IMG/VR virus record: IMGVR_UViG_3300036985_010228
Coordinates: 12,090-76,089 of that record
Source of the DNA: a virus
Reading direction: 5' to 3' (one strand)
DNA length: 64,000 nucleotides
The notes beneath the pieces are model-generated. The model had not been told where the DNA came from and made no database searches. It worked only from the letters and a program-made list of their open reading frames with translations. The position numbers and the translations under genes were made by a program. This document shows, piece after piece, positions 2,890 to 64,000 of this stretch (position 1 is the stretch's first letter; each line of letters opens with the position of its first letter).

Positions 2890-3707
2890 GCGCGGTTCCC
2901 GTTCAGGTCGAGGATCCTGTACTGGTGGAGCTTGTCGCCGACGATCTTGAGTTGCGGCCCGCTCAGTCGGCGGCCTTGGGAGACGTACTTCTGGGCAATG
3001 TCCTGGGCGAAGGTCATGACCCACTCGTCGTTGGCGCGCTTTGCCGCGACCCAGAGCCTGCGGAGCGCGTCGAGCCGAAGCTCACGAGTCTCGTCCACCT
3101 CACCCACAGGGTCAGGAGCCTTCGGGTTCGGCTCGATCTTCTGCGGGTCTGGCACCTTCACCGGGCGCTTGGACTCCTCCAGAATGAAGTCCCGCTCGCG
3201 GGGCATGAGCACGCCGCCCTGCTCGATCTTCCGGTGGTAGGCGAGCAGTTCGTTGTCGTTCTTCCAGCCGGGGATCTTCTCGATCAGATTGAGCAGGTCG
3301 ATCTTGTACTTCTCGCGGTCCTCGATCACCGAGATCGCGTCGTAGAAGTCCGAAGACGACAGGTACGCCTTCTTCATGGTCTCGACGCCAGCGGCCCAGG
3401 TCTTCTTCCAGCCGATCGTGCGCTTGAAGTGGCCTTGGCCCTGAGCCTTCTTGTTGAGCGTCCTGCCGGTCACGGTGCTGACGAGGGCAAGCTGCATTGA
3501 GGCTCGACCGACGGCCATTGCGTCGTCCGCAGAGCCGATCGTGCTGGAGAGCTTCACGGCGACTGAGGGTGAGAGGGCGAGCAGGTAGACACCCGCAAAG
3601 CGGGGGTCACGCGACCACTTCCCACGGTAGCCGATCGAGTCGAGCCACCCCTCCAGTTCCTCACGACCGATCTGAACGTAGGTGGCTGCTGCCGTCACGG
3701 TTCCCAT
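2874..3707 (-). CDS. Hypothetical protein, co-transcribed with the helicase
   Basis: 277 aa ORF starting 2 nt after the helicase stop, GGAG SD. C-terminal motif FAQDIAQKY...RRLSGPQL. Confidence 0.75.
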   Translation of the reverse strand: MGTVTAAATYVQIGREELEGWLDSIGYRGKWSRDPRFAGVYLLALSPSVAVKLSSTIGSADDAMAVGRASMQLALVSTVTGRTLNKKAQGQGHFKRTIGWKKTWAAGVETMKKAYLSSSDFYDAISVIEDREKYKIDLLNLIEKIPGWKNDNELLAYHRKIEQGGVLMPRERDFILEESKRPVKVPDPQKIEPNPKAPDPVGEVDETRELRLDALRRLWVAAKRANDEWVMTFAQDIAQKYVSQGRRLSGPQLKIVGDKLHQYRILDLNGNRAYELF

Positions 3708-3708
3708 G

Positions 3709-6700
3709 TCAGTTCTCCTCCTGGGGAGACGCGAGGCGACCCCACTGAGCCTCTAGTTCTTCGGGCGGTGGCTCCTCCTGAGCCATGTGCTCGAACTGTG
3801 CGATCTTGGACAGGGGGATCAGGAAGTCGCTGACGCTCGCCGTCCTGAGGTAGTTGGCGAAGGACGCGGCCCTCTCGCCCTCCTCCACTCCACCCTCCTC
3901 CACTCCGCCCTCCCCAGCCTCTGCCATGCCCTCTTCCTCGACGGTGCCGACGAGAGGGATACACGACTCGGACATGAACACGCTGGGCGACACGTCCTTG
4001 TCGTTCACGATCTGGGGCTCCAGGATCGTGACCTTCTGCCGACCCCGTGTGAGGGCGACGTAGGCGAGGCGGCGCTCGGATTCCATCATCTTTGGGTCCT
4101 CCATGGACCGCTTGTGCGGGAACCCGCCGTCCCACATGGGAATGAAGAGGTTCTCGACCTCCAAGCCCTTCCAGCCGTGGACGGTTCCAAGCTGGACCGC
4201 GTCAGGCCGCTCGGAGGGCTTGGGCTCGGTCTTGCCCTTCTCGAACTTCTTCGGGACGTTCCGCTTGTTGGCTTCGACGAGCGTGGTGATGTAGTCCGTG
4301 AACTGAATCGCCAGGGGGAACTTCTTGGCGGCCTTCAGGAGCGGATTGATCGGAGCCATTGCGTAGCTCGCGAGCATTTCCGGGGTGATCTTCCCGTCCC
4401 CCTCGTCCGCGATCATTTGCACTTCCGACATGGCCTCTGCGTCGTCCATGAGGCTGGCCGACAGGGAGTCCACGAGGGTGTCGCCGTCGGGTCCCTTGAA
4501 GTTGATAATGAAGTTGATCAGGTCGGTGGCGGACCCGGACCCGACCTTGGTGACCTCCTCCAGGTAGTCGGCATACGCCTGGAGCTTGTCCACCATTTCG
4601 CTCCGGAAGTAGACCTTCTTGGCCCCCTTCTTGTTGACGAGGAAGTCGTAGTAGTCGGTGACCTTCAACTCGTCCAGCTTCCCACCGAGCTTCGGGCCGT
4701 TGATCCCGAAGTCGGGGGCCTTCACGCCGTCGAGGACGCCCTTGTTCCGGGCCTGAACGCTGTCAGTCCGCAGGGTCGTGAAGAGGCCAATGATCGGCCC
4801 AATCGCCGGGCCGCCGAGGAAGTTCTTCTTGGCCCGGAAGGGGATCCCCTCCTCGATCATCTTCATTGCGAAGGCGAACAGTTCCTTGTTCGTGCGGACA
4901 GCGAGGCCGTAGTTCGAGTAGAACTTCCCCGTCTTCCCAGCCTGCCTGACCTCTTCGAGGTCGGCGAGGATCCCGTCAGTCAGCGACGAGGCCGCTGCGT
5001 CGAGGTCGCGCACGGAGAGGCGCTGGATTGAACCCTCGCCCTCCTTGGGGTTCGACTTGCAGGTCATGGGGATCTGCTTCGCATTGTGGGCGATCAGCTT
5101 GTTCGCTGCGTCCACGATCGCGTTGCCCGACCGGAAGTTCGTGTCGAGGAGCTTCGTGGTGAAGCCCTCGCCGCCTGGGACGAGGTTGGACTTCTCGATG
5201 AACCGGTCTGGGTCAGCGGCTCTGAACTCGTAGATCGCCTGCTTGTCGTCGCCAATGAAGGCGAACGTGTCGGCGGACATCTTCCCGCTCGCCCTGGGCT
5301 TCAGGGTCTGCGGGTCGAGGTAGCCAGCGACGAGGCCAATGAACAGGTGCTGCGCGGCGTTGAGGTCCTGCGCCTCGTCCACGAGAATACACTTGTACTG
5401 CTTCTGGTACTTGTTGAGCAGGGCCGGGCTCTCAATCAGTTCCCGCGTGGGCTGAATGAGCATATCGTCGAAGTCGAGGGCTCCCTTGATTTGGGGGATA
5501 TTCCCCTTGAGCCACTCGTAGGCACCGTAGACGGCAGAGAAGATCTTCTGCCTCTCCTGGCTCTCCGCTGCCCCCAGGTCGTTGCCCTCGTCGTCCTCGC
5601 CCACGGCTGTCTCGGGGGCCTTCTGGCTGTCCATGAAGATCGAGCCAGGGGCCTTGAGGCTGTTCTTGTTGAACGAGGTGAACTTGGTGAACTCGCCGAT
5701 CGGAATGTCCTTCCGCTCGCCGTCCTGGTCCTCGACGGTGAAGTCGTCGTCGGACGCCCCAATGTTGAACCACTGACCGGCGGGGTTGTGGATCCAGTAC
5801 TTGTACGGGGAGTCGGCGAAGTCGAGTACCTTCTGCTTCCTCGCCAGCGCCTTCTTCACTCCGCTCTCAGACACCCCGTTCTCGGCGGCAGTCTTGACGA
5901 GGACGTTCCGACGGGTCAGCCCGGCGGCTATGAGGGGGTGGGTAATGATCCCTTCGAGGACCTGCTTCTCGTTGGGCGCAAGCGTGCTCGGGTCCTGCGT
6001 GAACATGGACTGAAGCGCCTTCAGCGCGTTCTCGGCCTTGTCCGCCCCGACGGCTGCGCGGAGTTCTGCGGTGGCCTTCTCCACGGTGGTCCCGCGTGTG
6101 TTCCAGCCCTTGAACCGACGGGGTTGACGCCACTTGGGGTCTGCGTCTGCGAAGTTGAGCTTCGAGCCGTCGATCCGCAGGTTGGAGAGAATGTCCCAGA
6201 AGTTGTCGAGGCCCGGACCGAAGACCTCGATCCAGTAACCGGAGCCAGCCTGGGTGACCTTGACCTTCGGGATCGACGACAGGAAGTCGTTGAGGGTGTC
6301 GATCGCGGCACCCACGAGGGTCTTGAAGCGCCCCTCCTCCTGGAGGAAGAAGTCGAGCGGGCTCTTGGCCTCGACAGGGTTCTGCACCGGGGACTGCGTC
6401 TCGATTGCCGGGTTCTGGCGATCCTCCGGAGCACGCTCAGGCTCCTCGATCTGCTTGGCGCTCGGTGCGGCGTTCGGGAAGAACGACATGGCCTCCTTCG
6501 GAGGCAGCGGGGGCTGTCCGGCCCCCGCTTGCATTTTCACCTGGGCGATTGCAACCCGCATGAGGTTGGAAATGTCCCCGTCCTTGAGCACGTCGCCGCC
6601 CCCGCGCTTGCTCTCGCGCAGGATCGTGAAGCCGACCGAGTGGGTCGTTCCGATACCGGGCATCTTGTCGAGGTCAGGGATCGGGAAGCCGATCTCCCCG

Positions 6701-42500: not shown

Positions 42501-42975
42501 CGCCTTCCGCGTTGACCTGTGGTCGGACGCGCTCAACTCGGTCTGGCTCCTGACCGACCAACTGACGGCAGCAACCACGACCGGCGGAGGCCCCGTGGGG
42601 AACTTCCGGGGCGTCTTCCAGGACGACGCAGCCATGGTTCTTCAGACCAGCCTGCCCGCGCAGCTTCGCGAGGCCCCCGGTCGCGCCTTCATTATCGGCA
42701 ACGAGGGCGCTGTGATCCCCAACTACAGCGACGACTCGACGCTCTACTCTCAGGGGTATATCACCCCGACCGACATTGCGAACCGTCGCCAAGCGATCAC
42801 GCAGAACCGGGTCATGGTCTCCCTTCAGATCGGGGACGCCCCGTCCAACCACACCTACTGGGCGACCTACACGGTCGCCTTCGAGACCGGTGAGAAGGAC
42901 ATTGTGCCCTCCGGCGCTGAGTACCTGACCCCCGGCGTCTTCACGTTCACCTATTCGGAGGACAAGTCGGACTAG
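39547..42975 (+). CDS. Baseplate J-like (gp6-type) protein, extended
   Basis: PGSVVRD, FDKLAANFGVTR..G.RAIGEVRF, A..PGSAGNV, GGTNAQSNAEL, GKVDVW, LRMG..LRRSDV. Confidence 0.85.
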   Translation: MTLKVLAPDGTYGTAVAFSTTTTSRFFTGTINSDTADLEVSIRGGGFTSDPAMVSFSAAGWIVPNPTSYPNGLDLFSGENLVEVRSVPLSGVPSAPVTASVYLLASSVVQSIETPTAITVERLDSAVNVSVQGLTDPTVTGYNFYASATAGGGTVGYSRVNAQPVSIPVKKESTVSLYNLTSKNVTQSVVPLYVRALITQENLAQVTLETDVDSAVQIPDTVSQIQVDVSISSLEQTSFFEFLHNRKYNLSSVPSTIPVGSFSVLPSTEPLYYVVTAIFFNPVSQVEYESSYSQEVVASPIDVRISTQSIPAVSRQQILQNSVASIYRKDKDIAVQPGSVVRDTVLDPFSTEAERIRFLLDFIYRASSFDTLLAIDDPTGSGVSIPPASSSYKIALSKALYLANPTLVQTVIDGAFDKLAANFGVTRTPGQRAIGEVRFYTATTPTVTLQAQLGTLLSAGGVSFRSSRIAEIPLDRLASFYNPSTGQYSIIVPAQAVSPGSAGNVGPRQISSGAPFGLSVTNDNAFFGGTNAQSNAELAALARGSLSSVDTGTTQGYYQTAAKVPGLVQAKVVEAGNPLMQRDYDPATGTHIGGKVDVWAQGQRLATVTDVFAFTFIRKRDVQFVVLGDPGALQFQALDPDLSTTNPLTEMLDYPSIGLGLRNATSGLTYNLAGVTYLNYNTIKLSLDVPQPFELPTLTDVILGDYRYRTGEKFVFTRQPVESLTTVVGEASGTLDPSIYSLVHPNSPLALGRSTKAGDYLQITGSADPTLSIPTGTILAVTNESHVIVGEYFEYVLRLGADSLTVKVTNSTGTVTYASPFVSSTPDYTIVEGDQTNPLGIKRTSTSAISDGQTVLISYNYDENFTVTYQTNLITSALQLALDETKHGTADVLGKGGVPVPVDLTATIVLRRGFQQSTVDTRIRTNLGLLIAGLRMGVPLRRSDVVNVLDSVGGVSYVVLPMTKMVRSFGSQVVKDSVNSSQIGDAFRVDLWSDALNSVWLLTDQLTAATTTGGGPVGNFRGVFQDDAAMVLQTSLPAQLREAPGRAFIIGNEGAVIPNYSDDSTLYSQGYITPTDIANRRQAITQNRVMVSLQIGDAPSNHTYWATYTVAFETGEKDIVPSGAEYLTPGVFTFTYSEDKSD

Positions 42976-43008
42976 ACCTCACGCTCTGACTGGGCTACAG
43001 TTCGTGGC

Positions 43009-43887
43009 ATGAGGTTCAACTACGGCGGCAAGGCAAACCTGGGTGGGATCTACAGGATCCTCAATCTCGTGAACGGGCGCTTCTACATAGGGAGCACGTT
43101 CCGATTCAAGACCCGGTGGCCTCAGCATGAGTATGCCCTGCGAAGAGGAGCCCACTCCAACCGAGCCCTTCAAGGCGACTTCCACGAGTCAGGAACTGAC
43201 GCTTTTGCGATTGAGGTTGTGCAGGTGGTGCTTGAAGGGAAGGAGGCACGAATTGCTCTCGAAGAGGATATGCTCGCCTCCCACTTTGACAGCCAAATCC
43301 TTTGCTACAACGCAACCGTCAAGTGCCCACCCTCTCAAGAAGGCTTGAGGAAAGGACCCTGCCCAGCAGGGACAAAGGCAAAGATCCGCGCCGCGAAGAT
43401 AGGGGCTGACAAGCCAACCCGAGAAGTTATCGAGAGGCGCAGGGTTGGGATCCGTGCCGCCTATGCAGAGAGGGGTGACGTGATTCGTGAGAAGCTCAAG
43501 GCGGTCCACCTGGGGTCAAATCGCCCGGAGTCCACGAGGGAGAAAATGCGCGAGGCGTGGGTTCGCCGAAAGGCGAGGGCTGCCCAGCCTGGCCTCCCAC
43601 TCGTCTCTGACGCACAACGTGAACAACTCCGTGCGGTCTACACGACTGAGGAGTCGGTGGCAAAGTTCAAGGCTCGGATGGGGACGGAAGAGATCAAAGC
43701 GAAGCGCGTTGAGTCCTGGAAGAAGGTCCGCCCACGAGGCACGAAGAGGACACCCACCCCTGAAAGGACCAAGGAGAAGATTCGTGCCTCAAAGATTGGG
43801 AAGCCACGCACGGAGGCCGCCAAAGCTGCCATGCGGGCCGGACACGCGAGGCGTCGAGAGCGTCTAGCGTCTGAAGACCGGACCTGA
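43009..43887 (+). mobile_element. Second free-standing GIY-YIG homing endonuclease
   Basis: GGIYRILNLVNGRFYIGST, RWPQH...H.N..LQ.DF, CYN; NUMOD3-like repeats; atypical codons. Confidence 0.9.
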
Positions 43888-60841: not shown

Positions 60842-62130
60842 GTCTGTGGCTCCCTAAGCCTGTACGTCCGTGGACCAGAGGGGTCCTTCAGTGAGCCGAC
60901 CCAGATTGGGGCGATCCAGTTGCTGATCGAGGGACGCTGCTCCTTCGGGATCGGCGTGCCGTCAATCTTGCGGGGGCCAACCAGGAACGTGTGCCAGTGC
61001 CCCTTGCGAATATGCCCGGAGACCCTCCGACCTGTCGAGGTGAAGTCTCGGTCGCCGCCGACCTCTTGCTCGATCGTCGAGCCGACCCACACGACCCTGT
61101 GCTTGGGGAGCGTGTCGAGCTTGCGCTGAAGCGCCTTACCAGACCCCTTGCGCGGGTTTTTCACGCCCTTGAGCCGTGACTTCAGGCGGTCCCGCTCGTT
61201 GTCGCTCGTCACTGGGGCGCTCACCTCAGCGTTCGAGGCGTTCATGTAGAGGATCGTGTTGACCACGATCCGCATGAGCTTCCGGGCCGTCTCCTTGACG
61301 GTGTTGGCGTGCGCCTCCGTCTGACCCCGCTGGAAGAGTTCATGCTCGTGGTCGGACGCCTCTGCCCTCCGATTGCTCAGGAGCGAGGAGAGCGCATGGT
61401 CGATATTGATCCGACCACCCTGGTCTACCACAAGGGCGCGACCTCGGTGCTCCTTGAGGACGGCAGAGGTCAGCTTGGACTCTGCCTCTATGTTGGTGAG
61501 AGCCTCGCGCATTCTCGGCTTGTCCAAGCGCACGTCGAACTGGTCTTCGAGTCCAGTGTCCTCGTGGAACGGACCGAACGCGACCTTTTGCTCGTGGAAG
61601 CTCCTGCTCTGCTCTGTCCACCGGTCGAGGTCGAGACGGAACCAGAAGGTCGCGTCGTCCAGTGGGTCGAGGCTCTTCTCGTTGGCTGCGCCCCAGGCGA
61701 GAATGACGATCGCGTTGGCCGTGGGCTCCTTCGCCACATAGCACCCGGCGACCTTGTGCCACTGGGTCCGCTCCCCGCCCCACAGGACGAGCCCCTCGGA
61801 CTCTGGGGTCGCGAGGTAGAAGCATGGGTGGGGGAGTCGGATCAGGTCCGTGGGAATGTCCTCCAGGGACGTGTTCGCGAACGCCTCCTGCATTCGCGGC
61901 CCGACGCACACGACCTGCTGGTGGTGCCACTGATACGAGAGAACCAGCCGCGTCATGGAGTAGGTCGTCGAGTACGACCTCGCGAAGTCAGCCAGACCAC
62001 ACGACTCTCCGGTGGGGTCGTTGATTATCTCCAGCCGACGCTCAGCGTCGAGGCTGAGGACGTGCTTGAGGAACGGGACCTTGTGGTCCTTCAACGCCTC
62101 GAAGTGAATGCGTGGCTTGGGCAGTGTCAT
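60838..62130 (-). CDS. Hypothetical protein with C-terminal HxRxGHW motif
   Basis: HIRKGHWHTF...WIAPIWVG. Confidence 0.75.
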   Translation of the reverse strand: MTLPKPRIHFEALKDHKVPFLKHVLSLDAERRLEIINDPTGESCGLADFARSYSTTYSMTRLVLSYQWHHQQVVCVGPRMQEAFANTSLEDIPTDLIRLPHPCFYLATPESEGLVLWGGERTQWHKVAGCYVAKEPTANAIVILAWGAANEKSLDPLDDATFWFRLDLDRWTEQSRSFHEQKVAFGPFHEDTGLEDQFDVRLDKPRMREALTNIEAESKLTSAVLKEHRGRALVVDQGGRINIDHALSSLLSNRRAEASDHEHELFQRGQTEAHANTVKETARKLMRIVVNTILYMNASNAEVSAPVTSDNERDRLKSRLKGVKNPRKGSGKALQRKLDTLPKHRVVWVGSTIEQEVGGDRDFTSTGRRVSGHIRKGHWHTFLVGPRKIDGTPIPKEQRPSISNWIAPIWVGSLKDPSGPRTYRLREPQT

Positions 62131-62226
62131 GCGTCTACCCAGGAAGCGATTGGGAGGGGTGCCTCTTCACGATTCAACCCTTACGCCTTTTGATTTATCT
62201 GCCTCCCAGGTTGAGGGCTGCTTCCA

Positions 62227-62493
62227 ATGAGCTACGACGAAGACCCACCGACCCGTCCGCACCGTCGCCCTCCCTCCCTCTCCTTGGGGCACATTGAGAA
62301 GTGGGGCCTCATCGAGGCATGGCTCGTCGGGGACAAGGAACGCAGAGTCACGCTCGTGTCCGGGGAGAACGGCCTCAAGGTCATGGTCCACGACCCGATC
62401 CGGGGCATGGTCACCGAAGACGTTGGGCGGGACGAGGACCCGAGCGCGACCGTGTTGCGGTGCCTGGGGCGATTTTCTCTCCTGACCCCCTAG
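62227..62493 (+). CDS. Small hypothetical protein
   Basis: SD GAGG; typical codons. Confidence 0.5.
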   Translation: MSYDEDPPTRPHRRPPSLSLGHIEKWGLIEAWLVGDKERRVTLVSGENGLKVMVHDPIRGMVTEDVGRDEDPSATVLRCLGRFSLLTP

Positions 62494-62519
62494 ACAAGTT
62501 CGCGGCTCGAAGCTATCGT
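62491..62519 (+). promoter_or_regulatory. Sigma70-like promoter
   Basis: TAGACA-17 nt-TATCGT, ending 9 nt before ATG 62529. Confidence 0.65.
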
Positions 62520-62528
62520 CTACAAACC

Positions 62529-62549
62529 ATGCAGCCCCACCTCACGTAG
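62529..62549 (+). promoter_or_regulatory. Leader uORF MQPHLT ending in UAG; read-through frame VRSRGPPPQK... continues to TGA 62654
   Basis: ATG CAG CCC CAC CTC ACG TAG GTT CGT TCT CGC GGT CCT CCA CCA. Confidence 0.6.
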
Positions 62550-62623
62550 GTTCGTTCTCGCGGTCCTCCACCACAGAAGTTCGCCGCACGTCACCCGTGT
62601 CTCGAATTTCTCAGGAGGAACCC

Positions 62624-63070
62624 GTGGAAAAGAACGAACAGATCGAGGGACTGAAGAAGACGCTCACCGCAACGGTCGAGCGCAAGCAGCAGAACACCCG
62701 TGAGCGGGTCGCCTACAAGAAGGCGAACCCTTCGAGTGGCAAGTACGACGACCAGCGCGAGAACTGCATTCGCTCGTACTGGAAGGAGAACGCGGACCTC
62801 AAGGAGGAGATCCGCCACCAGGGGCTCGCCTACGCCTTCCTGCGGGGTCGGCGCTACTGGGTGACCGAGAGGGCGACCAAGAACCCCCCGGACGCTGGGA
62901 TCGTCGCTGGTGCTCTCGGCGGACCCTCCTTCACGGAGGCCGTCCAGGCGTGGCTCGACGAGAGCCCGACCCCGGAGGAGAAGCTCGCGTTCGAGCAGCA
63001 CCTCGCTGCTGCGGCTGTGAAGGCACGCGAAGAGTACAGGGCACGCTCTGCCGCCAAGAGGGCCGCGTGA
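62624..63070 (+). CDS. Hypothetical protein with RHxxLAYxFLRGxxY motif
   Basis: SD AGGAGG at 62613-62618, GTG 62624; IRHQGLAYAFLRGRRYWVTE. Confidence 0.8.
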   Translation: MEKNEQIEGLKKTLTATVERKQQNTRERVAYKKANPSSGKYDDQRENCIRSYWKENADLKEEIRHQGLAYAFLRGRRYWVTERATKNPPDAGIVAGALGGPSFTEAVQAWLDESPTPEEKLAFEQHLAAAAVKAREEYRARSAAKRAA

Positions 63071-63357
63071 AGGGCTACTTCGTCGCGTGCTCGACGGGCT
63101 GCTCTTGCTGCTCGAACGAGAACCACACCAGGGGTCCCTTCTCCTCCCGCGAGATTGCGGAGGGGGCCTGCGCCAAGTACCTGGAGGTGGGGATTCTTGG
63201 CTCTCAATACGCCCGCAAGGGCCGCTACCGGGTCGAGGAGTACGACGCGGAGCTTCTGCCGGACGGTAGGGTGATCGCCGCCAACGTGGTGTTCCCGAAG
63301 TGGAAGGACGAGGACATTCTGGTGGACGATCAGGTCTACCTGGAGATCGGAACGTGA
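63067..63357 (+). CDS. Small hypothetical protein with CSTGCSCC motif
   Basis: GTGA-coupled on both sides. Confidence 0.65.
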   Translation: MKGYFVACSTGCSCCSNENHTRGPFSSREIAEGACAKYLEVGILGSQYARKGRYRVEEYDAELLPDGRVIAANVVFPKWKDEDILVDDQVYLEIGT

Positions 63358-63665
63358 AGCTCTTCCTGGTGACCCGGCGGGACCTCTCCGCCGGGTTGCG
63401 GGCCGCCATGCTCTGCCACGCGCTGCGGGAGTTCAGGGCAGGCCACGAGAAGATCGACGCGGAGTGGTACGCCACCTCGAACACGCTCGTGCTCCTGGAG
63501 ACCGACGGCCTCGACTCGCTCACGGAGTTGGCCGACCTCGCCACGAGAAGGGGCGTCCCAATCTCCCGGTTCGAGGAGCCAGACCTCGGGGGAGTGCTCG
63601 CTGCTGTCGCTATCGGCCCGTCAGGGCGTAAGCTGGTTCGTGACCTCCCGCTGGCGTTTGCGTGA
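63354..63665 (+). CDS. PTH2-type peptidyl-tRNA hydrolase-like protein
   Basis: KLFLVTRRDLSAGLRAAMLCHA...W...TLVLL...FEEPDLGG...AVAIGP...LPL matches the PTH2 pattern. Confidence 0.8.
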   Translation: MKLFLVTRRDLSAGLRAAMLCHALREFRAGHEKIDAEWYATSNTLVLLETDGLDSLTELADLATRRGVPISRFEEPDLGGVLAAVAIGPSGRKLVRDLPLAFA

Positions 63666-63673
63666 GGGCACAT

Positions 63674-63745
63674 GGTCCCGTAGCCTAGTGGTTCAGGCAA
63701 CGGATTCTAAATCCGGCAACGCGGGTTCAATTCCTGCCGGGACCG
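63674..63745 (+). tRNA. Amber-suppressor tRNA, anticodon CUA
   Basis: Acceptor GGTCCCG/CGGGACC; D-arm GCCT-AGTGGTTC-AGGC; anticodon arm ACGGA-TTCTAAA-TCCGG (CTA at 63707-63709); T-arm GCGGG-TTCAATT-CCTGC; discriminator G; CCA not encoded. Confidence 0.88.
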
Positions 63746-63763
63746 CTGATCGTCGAGGTAGTC

Positions 63764-64000
63764 ATGAAGGGCGGCAACATCTCACGGCACAAGAAGACGA
63801 AGCTCGGTATGCTCCCTGGGGACATTCCGATTCAGGGCAAGGCTCGAATGCTGGAGAAGCGAGAGCGTGTGCTGCCTGAGTCAATGGACCCCAAGGGCAC
63901 GATCGGGGCGAAGTGCGCGAAGAGCTACAAGCGGGACGTGGTGAAGCTCGCAAACCGCAGGGCGAGGCGGGCACCAGTCGAGACAACCAACGAGGAGTGA
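63764..64000 (+). CDS. Small basic protein
   Basis: SD GAGGT; KRDVVKLANRRARRA. Confidence 0.6.
   Translation: MKGGNISRHKKTKLGMLPGDIPIQGKARMLEKRERVLPESMDPKGTIGAKCAKSYKRDVVKLANRRARRAPVETTNEE

Follow-up and report, generated by a model that had tools for sequence, protein, structure and literature searches.

We find that a leader in a phage genome fragment carries an in-frame stop codon just ahead of a predicted ribosome-arrest motif, and that this arrangement recurs across diverged phage lineages. The leader lies in a 64-kb stretch of viral DNA (hereafter the window), which is the last part of a 76-kb IMG/VR record (IMGVR_UViG_3300036985_010228). It consists of a short upstream open reading frame (uORF) that ends in TAG and is continued in the same frame by the residues Arg-Gly-Pro-Pro (RGPP). 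Downstream lie genes for an unnamed protein (ORF1), a variable insert (ORF2), a Pth2-like peptidyl-tRNA hydrolase (PTH2), and a putative amber-suppressor tRNA with anticodon CUA, tRNA(CUA). We consider it probable that the leader is a read-through-gated arrest-peptide switch, whereby ORF1 and PTH2 are made only when suppression works. A first-pass annotation of the same DNA had drawn attention to the locus. Its observation is confirmed, and its interpretation is supported by comparison of sequences and predicted folds.

The anatomy described in the first-pass annotation is present in the window (Table 1). This applies to the TAGACA-N17-TATCGT promoter and the near-leaderless uORF MQPHLT ending at UAG, to the read-through peptide VRSRGPPP (here extended to VRSRGPPPQK), and to the passage of the read-through frame over the Shine-Dalgarno (SD) sequence and start codon of ORF1 to a TGA. 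It also applies to the chain of three genes joined by GTGA overlaps (at 63067-63070 and 63354-63357), with tRNA(CUA) following 8 nt after the PTH2 stop. The promoter is one of three sigma-70-like sites in 3.5 kb, against 0.2 expected. Because it ends 9 nt 5' of the ATG at 62529, the uORF is probably leaderless, and its mRNA probably starts at or next to the uORF AUG. The RGPP codons occupy 62559-62570, and at the predicted stall the P site would stand on CCT at 62565-62567. The nascent chain would then be 13 residues long, with no hydrophobic segment, and encoded by an ORF that TAG interrupts. The ORF1 start is backed by an ATG at the same place in two close relatives (L007 and L008) and by a G>A change at 62624 in contig X5.

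We find that the region 62526-62640 folds as one long hairpin (free energy, dG, -43.7 kcal/mol; z = -5.0), and 0 of 200 shuffled sequences folded as well. In the minimum free energy (MFE) and centroid structures, 11 of the 12 motif nucleotides find partners between -15 and +3 of the ORF1 start. The anti-SD pairing anticipated in the first-pass annotation stands in part. TCCTCC (62564-62569) is complementary to GGAGGA (62613-62618) and pairs with it in the MFE structure, whereas the second proposed helix, GGTTC with GAACC of the SD region, is not formed; GGUUCGUUCU pairs instead with AGAACGAAC (62631-62639, ORF1 codons 3-6). The fold is nonetheless stronger than had been claimed. High-GC (guanine-cytosine) relatives show the same relation, with 8 to 11 of the 12 motif nucleotides paired to the -15 to +3 region in 10 of 11 leaders. 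The motif likewise pairs with the start region in two leaders with an RAPP motif (L036 and L039), while the fold of a third (L037) is unclear. Of 14 leaders folded, 11 have their motif codons paired with the SD and start region of the next gene. In ten relatives with shuffle controls, hairpin z values range from -0.9 to -5.2.

A single match to the pattern M-x(3-10)-stop-x(2-5)-R[GAD]PP is present in the window, against 0.26 per shuffled window (any stop codon), and the motif CCCTAGAC shows no enrichment. A single copy of the pattern is weak evidence on its own; it is conservation across lineages that argues against chance. To collect related loci, viral and metagenome contigs were scanned with alignments of ORF1 and of PTH2, while a scan of viral contigs with the single ORF1 protein recovered no relative. 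Fifteen leaders from about 13 diverged phage lineages (GC content 30-66%, PTH2 identity down to ~38%) share one plan: a uORF of 2-12 codons, an in-frame stop, 2-6 codons, and R(G/A/D)PP. The gate codon is TAG in 14 of the 15 and TAA only in L030. An ORF1-family gene lies directly 3' of the leader in 14 of the 15, the genes downstream of L023 and L030 being assigned to the family by profile comparison (E 1.6e-5 and 8e-8, respectively). The closest lineages keep the entire gene order of 88-aa gene, leader, ORF1, variable insert, PTH2, and tRNA(CUA). Absence of a conserved uORF, amber codon, and RGPP from homologous loci had been named beforehand as the outcome that would speak against the idea; the design turns up in ~13 lineages, with synonymous substitutions in the motif.

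The pattern of substitution bears on what is conserved. Across the 15 leaders, Arg is encoded by CGC, CGT, CGA, or AGA, the second residue by seven codons (GGT, GGC, GGA, GCA, GCT, GCC, and GAT), and Pro by CCT, CCG, CCC, or CCA. Thus, all four third positions of the motif vary, while only two of the eight first and second positions do, through the switch of Arg codon family and the Gly, Ala, and Asp alternatives. As third positions vary while residues are kept, selection appears to act on the peptide and not on the RNA helix alone. Stop and motif are in the same frame in all 15 leaders despite 3-nt indels. Furthermore, no ATG, GTG, or TTG occurs between them, so the motif would be translatable only through read-through of the stop. 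In L007, L008, and a related sediment contig, the uORF carries only synonymous changes (CAC>CAT, ACG>ACC). In the promoter spacer, 13 of 31 nt distinguish the sediment contig from the window; in the leader only 3 of 85 do, each of these differences being synonymous in the uORF or read-through frame.

Promoter placement is shared as well. In 12 of 14 lineages, the uORF start is preceded by a sigma-70-like -35/-10 pair that ends 4-11 nt away, a spacing that suggests a leaderless uORF; in L023, the uORF instead has its own SD. The distance from stop to ORF1 start is 75-93 nt, and the nascent chain at the predicted stall would be 11-18 residues long (8 in L028). Shorter leaders occur in a low-GC clade (32-34% GC). 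Three members (L022, L025, and L026, at ~4180-4215) have the mini-leader MM-TAG-IA-RPPN-TAA, and L028 (4184-4213) has MK-TAG-II-RAPP-TAA. These mini-leaders stand 3' of tRNA-Cys and 5' of a 137-aa ORF unrelated to ORF1, and tRNA(CUA) lies 5' of PTH2.

We find that the predicted gate codon covaries with the anticodon of the putative suppressor. The 76-kb record has no tRNA other than the window tRNA(CUA), which folds as a canonical cloverleaf with 7 nt in its anticodon loop and has ambiguous identity elements. Of the 12 TAG leaders with a continuing contig, 11 have a tRNA(CUA) within 3.5 kb. L030, whose leader alone has TAA, adjoins a 90-nt class-II-like tRNA (L030:4173-4263, 3' of PTH2; 50.6 bits) with loop CUUUAAA and the ochre anticodon UUA. 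More broadly, a suppressor tRNA adjoins PTH2 homologues in 13 of 20 loci of large phages. The suppressor tRNAs of different lineages are very unlike each other, with G or A as discriminator, and comparison with the 36 tRNAs of a related phage showed no close parent. Since these tRNAs differ so widely, the switch probably depends on read-through itself and not on the residue inserted.

Three related loci have no stop-plus-RxPP leader. In L013, the ORF1-PTH2 pair adjoins tRNA-Arg(CCU) and a transfer-messenger RNA (tmRNA; tag ANDNSYAQAIAA), and the leader has two TAGs in frame with ORF1 and no RxPP. The corresponding record (G001; 222 kb, 50% complete; regions concerned, 9.2-20 kb and 74.1-75.5 kb) has a single cluster of 36 tRNA genes, with no CUA among them. 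The tRNAs near L040 are all sense. In L038, an ORF1-family gene is followed by a tRNA (3378-3452) with loop CUUCAAA, possibly UCA (opal), and the leader (2730-2860) holds the mini-ORFs MT-TGA and MRTVR-TGA and a CCUCCU anti-SD without RxPP.

The scheme that we favor joins the computed fold and the conserved plan to a transcription start, a suppression event, an arrest, and an induction that we infer. In silico, the free leader folds into a long hairpin that would bury the SD, start, and first codons of ORF1, leaving the operon OFF. A ribosome on MQPHLT would meet UAG and be released by RF1; it would cover only the base of the hairpin, and the SD would stay hidden. When charged tRNA(CUA) outcompetes RF1, the ribosome would read three more codons and then Arg-Gly-Pro-Pro, where, judging from the literature, it would stall with RGP-tRNA in the P site. 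Since the Pro-Pro codons CCUCC double as the anti-SD, the stalled ribosome would sit on the anti-SD arm and free the ORF1 SD and start. ORF1 would then be translated, followed by ORF2 and PTH2 via the overlapping GTGA junctions. We can only speculate on purpose: ORF1 and Pth2 might handle the after-effects of suppression, for instance drop-off of peptidyl-tRNA or ribosomes that have run past stop codons. The first-pass annotation held that the sign of the feedback could not be read from sequence; the modeled anatomy points to a sign, and we propose default OFF and ON upon read-through.

We weighed several other explanations. In one, TAG is read efficiently in the phase of infection that matters, arrest is the default, and release is regulated, for example by Pth2 or ORF1 acting on stalled or dropped-off peptidyl-tRNA, giving negative autoregulation. 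This is unlikely in our view. The operon does code for a peptidyl-tRNA hydrolase, and in one 231-aa protein (P0064) an ORF1-family domain (residues ~5-118) is fused to a PTH2 domain (127-222), which argues that the two act together. A release route would also be needed, since a chain of 11-18 residues cannot be reached by pulling from outside the tunnel. Pth2 enzymes, however, are known to act on free, not ribosome-bound, peptidyl-tRNA. Such a leader would also leave unexplained why every one of them, the TAA/UUA pair included, has an in-frame stop cognate to a phage tRNA.

Efficient reading of TAG is also at odds with the coding status of the window. ORFs of 1053-1845 aa, structural genes included, are open under table 11 (in a 64-kb window of a much larger genome), and TAG terminates ~10 of 43 coding-like ORFs. 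Because long genes have no in-frame TAG and ~10 genes end in it, TAG does not appear to be a general sense codon here, and wholesale recoding (code 15) was rejected for the window. Apart from separate genes, no TAG in the window is flanked on both sides by clearly coding-like sequence. One candidate, the TAG of the baseplate-J gene with an in-frame ORF of 292 aa, was rejected as a read-through extension, the ORF being a separate GIY-YIG endonuclease gene. As the window is not recoded, the leader is the only identified target of its putative suppressor. No RF-1 domain is encoded in the 76-kb record.

A second alternative is that the leader senses termination, the ribosome waiting for RF1 at UAG melting the helix while RGPP serves as a safety brake that guards the ORF1 start. 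The 5' hairpin arm of the window does begin 1 nt after the stop, and prfB offers a familiar precedent in the autoregulation of RF2 via a pause at UGA. Constrained folds of seven leaders, in which a ribosome footprint of -12 to +14 was masked at two positions, point the other way. When the footprint places the stop in the A site and the last sense codon in the P site, the upper helix with the SD stays formed in all seven. When it places the first Pro codon in the P site, this helix is lost, and the SD and start become more accessible in 7 of 7, their mean unpaired probability rising from ~0.25-0.4 to 0.46-0.61. Thus, of the two triggers for melting named in the first-pass annotation, a pause at UAG and a stall at RGPP, the folds favor the stall, as only the footprint on the Pro codon removes the SD helix. 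In silico, the predicted stall site is placed to free the downstream SD. Nor does a safety brake need the strongest known arrest core exactly on the anti-SD, and the TAA gate of L030, readable by RF1 and RF2, matches the local ochre tRNA. We therefore judge a sensor of RF1 to be rather improbable.

The same gate could have another output, acting by Rho polarity or mRNA decay across ORF1, PTH2, and the tRNA; in the window, it would then control tRNA supply and give positive feedback. No terminator-like site lies between PTH2 and the tRNA 8 nt downstream, and a synthetic switch with TAG in a leader does operate via Rho (PMC6412442). The conserved feature, however, is sequestration of the SD and start by the motif codons. 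The tRNA is on the other strand in L016 and L017, so control of tRNA transcription is not general, and we hold an output of this kind to be quite unlikely. An operon with its own tRNA, as first described, is thus found in the window and is not a general property, the tRNA of relatives lying on the other strand or elsewhere. It is very improbable that the element acts purely as RNA (a stability or processing hairpin, with uORF, stop, and RGPP as by-products of a CCUCC anti-SD), for although CCUCC reads Pro-Pro in one of three frames and close relatives show strong nucleotide-level conservation of the hairpin, Arg switches between CGN and AGA, Gly/Ala uses six codons, third positions vary under constant amino acids, all 15 leaders retain frame and stop in spite of indels, and the stop tracks the tRNA anticodon.

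Several points weigh against the read-through-gated switch. The computed rise in SD accessibility is moderate, as the model lets other weak pairings arise. For seven leaders in a plain MAFFT alignment, RNAalifold gives weak consensus support, because helix registers shift between lineages, and the structural argument relies on per-sequence folds. Published RAPP and RGPP arrest peptides are longer than the 13-residue chain of the leader, and their N-terminal context modulates stalling (PMC10951233). The window tRNA is a putative amber suppressor, and its charging and the amino acid it would insert count on the same side. So does the twelfth TAG leader with a continuing contig, L009, where the tRNA adjoining PTH2 (L009:3168-3241) has an ambiguous anticodon: Infernal gives a 7-nt loop AUUCUAA with anticodon UCU and a U-C mismatch in the stem, and ARAGORN a perfect 5-bp stem with an 8-nt loop AUUCUAAC containing CUA. 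No RNA run carrying the locus was found among the listed datasets. Finally, release of the arrest has no explanation within the model.

Known arrest leaders sense secretion, membrane insertion, metabolites, or antibiotics, and to our knowledge none senses stop decoding. The arrest core itself has been well characterized. RGPP and RAPP arrest robustly in varied N-terminal contexts without rescue by elongation factor P (EF-P), RDPP being partly permissive (PMC12992588, PMC10951233), and RGPP, the strongest of the EF-P-refractory cores, is also the 4-mer that bacterial proteomes avoid most (PMC12992588). In Streptomyces, such uORFs precede diverse genes, with seven in Streptomyces lividans (PMC12992588, PMC10951233). 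The phage leader resembles ApdA, ApdP, ApcA, and the S. lividans uORFs in its R-(A/G)-P-P core, placed just 5' of and co-directional with the regulated gene (PMC7897499, PMC10951233, PMC12992588). As in those peptides, the stall would be expected with RAP- or RGP-tRNA in the P site and Pro-tRNA in the A site, EF-P-resistant, with RDPP permissive and avoided. It differs in that its arrest ORF is interrupted by a stop cognate to the phage suppressor tRNA. Its chain is 11-18 residues long with no signal or membrane segment, so that neither input nor release would come from a pulling force. It is also phage-encoded and would regulate Pth2 and a partner rather than localization machinery. As predicted, the leader can be likened to the SecM/ApdA class, yet it fails two defining features, an uninterrupted ORF and a force-bearing N-terminal segment.

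Other systems share single elements of the proposed switch. In SecM-secA and MifM-yidC2, stalling of a ribosome on the leader breaks up a hairpin in which the downstream SD is sequestered; those leaders sense secretion or insertion via force on the nascent chain, whereas the phage leader would sense stop decoding. The early in-frame UGA of prfB also measures termination capacity. The outcome there is a +1 frameshift that makes RF2, whereas in the phage leader a suppressor tRNA would be the competitor and arrest would open a downstream ribosome-binding site. In eukaryotic AMD1, an arrest sequence is likewise reached only after stop read-through, by near-cognate decoding, and queued ribosomes silence the main ORF (PMC13025110); the phage leader would use an encoded suppressor tRNA, and its stall is predicted to activate the downstream cistron. 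The synthetic 'Uaa transcriptional switch', with TAG in a tna or trp leader peptide, is engineered and works via Rho or attenuation (PMC6412442), whereas the phage element is natural and conserved and, by prediction, acts on SD access via RGPP arrest. Full-text literature searches returned no description of a natural stop-codon-gated arrest leader, nor of a link between Pth2 and suppressor tRNAs.

Phage suppressor tRNAs have been reported in other settings. The jumbo phage XacN1 has two tRNA(CUA) genes with no detectable target (PMC5852040), and our window resembles it in having a phage tRNA(CUA) and no recoded genes. Code 15 phages, which reassign TAG to Gln (bioRxiv 10.1101/2021.08.26.457843), also have a tRNA(CUA), whereas the window is not recoded. 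Relative to both, the phage leader offers at least one conserved, specific target codon.

The module might also do more than sense suppression, although we regard the following extension as doubtful. It could be a closed-loop controller of genetic-code state, in which the leader reads the ratio of UAG suppression to termination and a complex of ORF1 and Pth2 feeds back, so that suppression is held at a set level in a host and genome that use TAG as stop; the ORF1 family (>1000 clusters) would then be a new class of translation factor. Feedback could run through hydrolysis of peptidyl-tRNA(CUA), release of RGPP-arrested or read-through-stranded ribosomes, or modulation of RF1. Beside the question of stranded ribosomes, we note that the L013 neighborhood also holds the tmRNA mentioned above.

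The regulated genes are themselves little described. ORF1 matches no curated Pfam or PHROG family, its sole Pfam match being below the cut-off (zf-HC2, 19.4 vs 22.2). Foldseek comparison of its predicted structure with the PDB returned nothing at E<=1e-3, and VIA-align returned only generic helical hairpins (Z ~10, below the level meaningful for helical proteins). Close relatives are few (9 clusters). An exhaustive profile search yields 1146 cluster representatives at E<=1e-3, almost all of them freestanding proteins 100-170 aa long. ORF2 occurs only in the window and L007, other lineages having different inserts or none. The third gene is predicted to encode a Pth2-like hydrolase, translationally coupled to the upstream genes. 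Its residues 1-96 match profile positions 1-106 of 115, it also matches phrog_1866 and phrog_3668, and its sequence match to the solved structure 1rlk is weak (E 0.12). PTH2 homologues occur in all related loci (38-95% identity), and a Pth2-like hydrolase lies 3' of ORF1 wherever the contig continues. The first-pass annotation had described a regulated operon with PTH2; comparison redefines the regulated unit as the conserved pair of ORF1-family protein and PTH2, not PTH2 alone. In another locus (L031:3470-3530), the PTH2 frame seems to begin ATG GAA CCG TAG followed by VHRLYTVTREDL, placing an in-frame TAG at codon 4. There, VHRLYTVTREDL aligns with the N-terminal strand KLFLVTRRDL, and a tRNA(CUA) lies at 4076-4150. 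This appears to be another way to make Pth2 depend on suppression.

The record is 17% complete (CheckV), and the window (~64% GC) codes for a baseplate-J protein, a family-A DNA polymerase, DnaB-like and UvrD-like helicases, and a GIY-YIG endonuclease. This completeness and gene content indicate a fragment of a large phage. The ORF1 protein of the window is also found on a 176,827-bp contig, and the longest contig with a relative measures 472,929 bp. Only 250 nt separate the locus from the end of its contig, and the datasets listed as carrying its DNA are sediment metagenomes. A megablast search of positions 61000-64000 against GenBank phages gave no match, and an alignment-based scan of 185,579 species genomes found no relatives. 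Homologues of the upstream 88-aa gene, which has no Pfam or PHROG match, lie directly 5' of the leader in L005, L007-L010, and L012 (tblastn). Suppression at the TAG of this gene (62491-62493) would add 69 residues, running across the leader into the ORF1 region in another frame. Elsewhere in the window, a second TAGAC-type promoter-like site (TAGACC-N17-TACAGT, 42973-43001) overlaps the TAG stop of the baseplate-J gene, just 5' of the GIY-YIG endonuclease ORF (43009-43887), which is in frame with that gene.

Table 1. Predicted features of the leader-operon locus in the window, and leaders of related loci (uORF, gate codon, spacer, and motif).
Feature	Coordinates	Strand	Basis or remark
Upstream 88-aa gene (context)	62227..62493	+	TAG stop overlaps -35 hexamer
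Sigma-70-like promoter TAGACA-N17-TATCGT	62491..62519	+	Promoter scan; ends 9 nt before uORF ATG
uORF MQPHLT with gate codon TAG (62547-62549)	62529..62549	+	ATG 62529
Read-through extension VRS-RGPP-PQK...	62550..62654	+	Ends TGA 62652-62654, past ORF1 SD and GTG
5' hairpin arm (anti-SD)	62550..62569	+	MFE and centroid folds; starts 1 nt after TAG; holds Gly-Pro-Pro codons GGUCCUCC
Inner hairpin capping the leader helix	62575..62610	+	Folds; also in L007, L008, L012
3' hairpin arm: SD AGGAGGA (62613-62619), GTG (62624), ORF1 codons 2-6, all predicted to be sequestered	62613..62639	+	Folds
ORF1, 148 aa, all-helical, motif LAYAFLRGRRYW; candidate directly gated gene	62624..63070	+	AF2 model, pLDDT 90
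ORF2, 96 aa, Cys-rich, CSTGCSCCSNENH cluster	63067..63357	+	Variable insert between ORF1 and PTH2
Pth2-like peptidyl-tRNA hydrolase, 103 aa	63354..63665	+	Pfam PF01981, E 4.3e-6, 27.3 bits vs cut-off 23
Putative amber-suppressor tRNA, anticodon CUA, loop UUCUAAA	63674..63746	+	ARAGORN; Infernal 62.9 bits
Leader of window, L007, L008			MQPHLT-TAG-VRS-RGPP
Leader of L005			M(TLV)NHHL-TAG-IRSA-RGPP
Leader of L006			MISHHT-TAG-VNLP-RGPP
Leader of L009			MNSHHT-TAG-VCFA-RGPP
Leader of L012			MKPLRRH-TAG-VRL-RDPP
Leader of L016, L017			MTWT-TAG-L(H/P)LP-RGPP
Leader of L018			MIWT-TAG-LHLSLA-RGPP
Leader of L023			MRPFW-TAG-LGC-RGPP-stop
Leader of L030	L030:2580-2700		MHSLRSDWNCHL-TAA-LP-RGPP; TAA gate
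Leader of L036			MNTFL-TAG-NYNA-RAPP; GC 30%
Leader of L037			MNGL-TAG-LPLA-RAPP
Leader of L039			MNYL-TAG-VRA-RAPP-stop
Leader of L028			MK-TAG-II-RAPP-stop; low GC, 5' of unrelated ORF

If the proposed switch is real, it would be the first natural genetic read-out of nonsense suppression and a natural counterpart of the synthetic TAG-in-leader switches. The 'orphan' suppressor tRNAs of large phages would thereby acquire a concrete target that is conserved, and Pth2-like hydrolases and a large unnamed protein family would be linked to them. The leader may also serve as a portable part of ~100 nt for reporting suppressor-tRNA activity in vivo. It would further bear on phage transitions between the standard genetic code and recoded ones: with about one-fifth of its genes ending in TAG, a phage evidently has to register when its suppressor is working.

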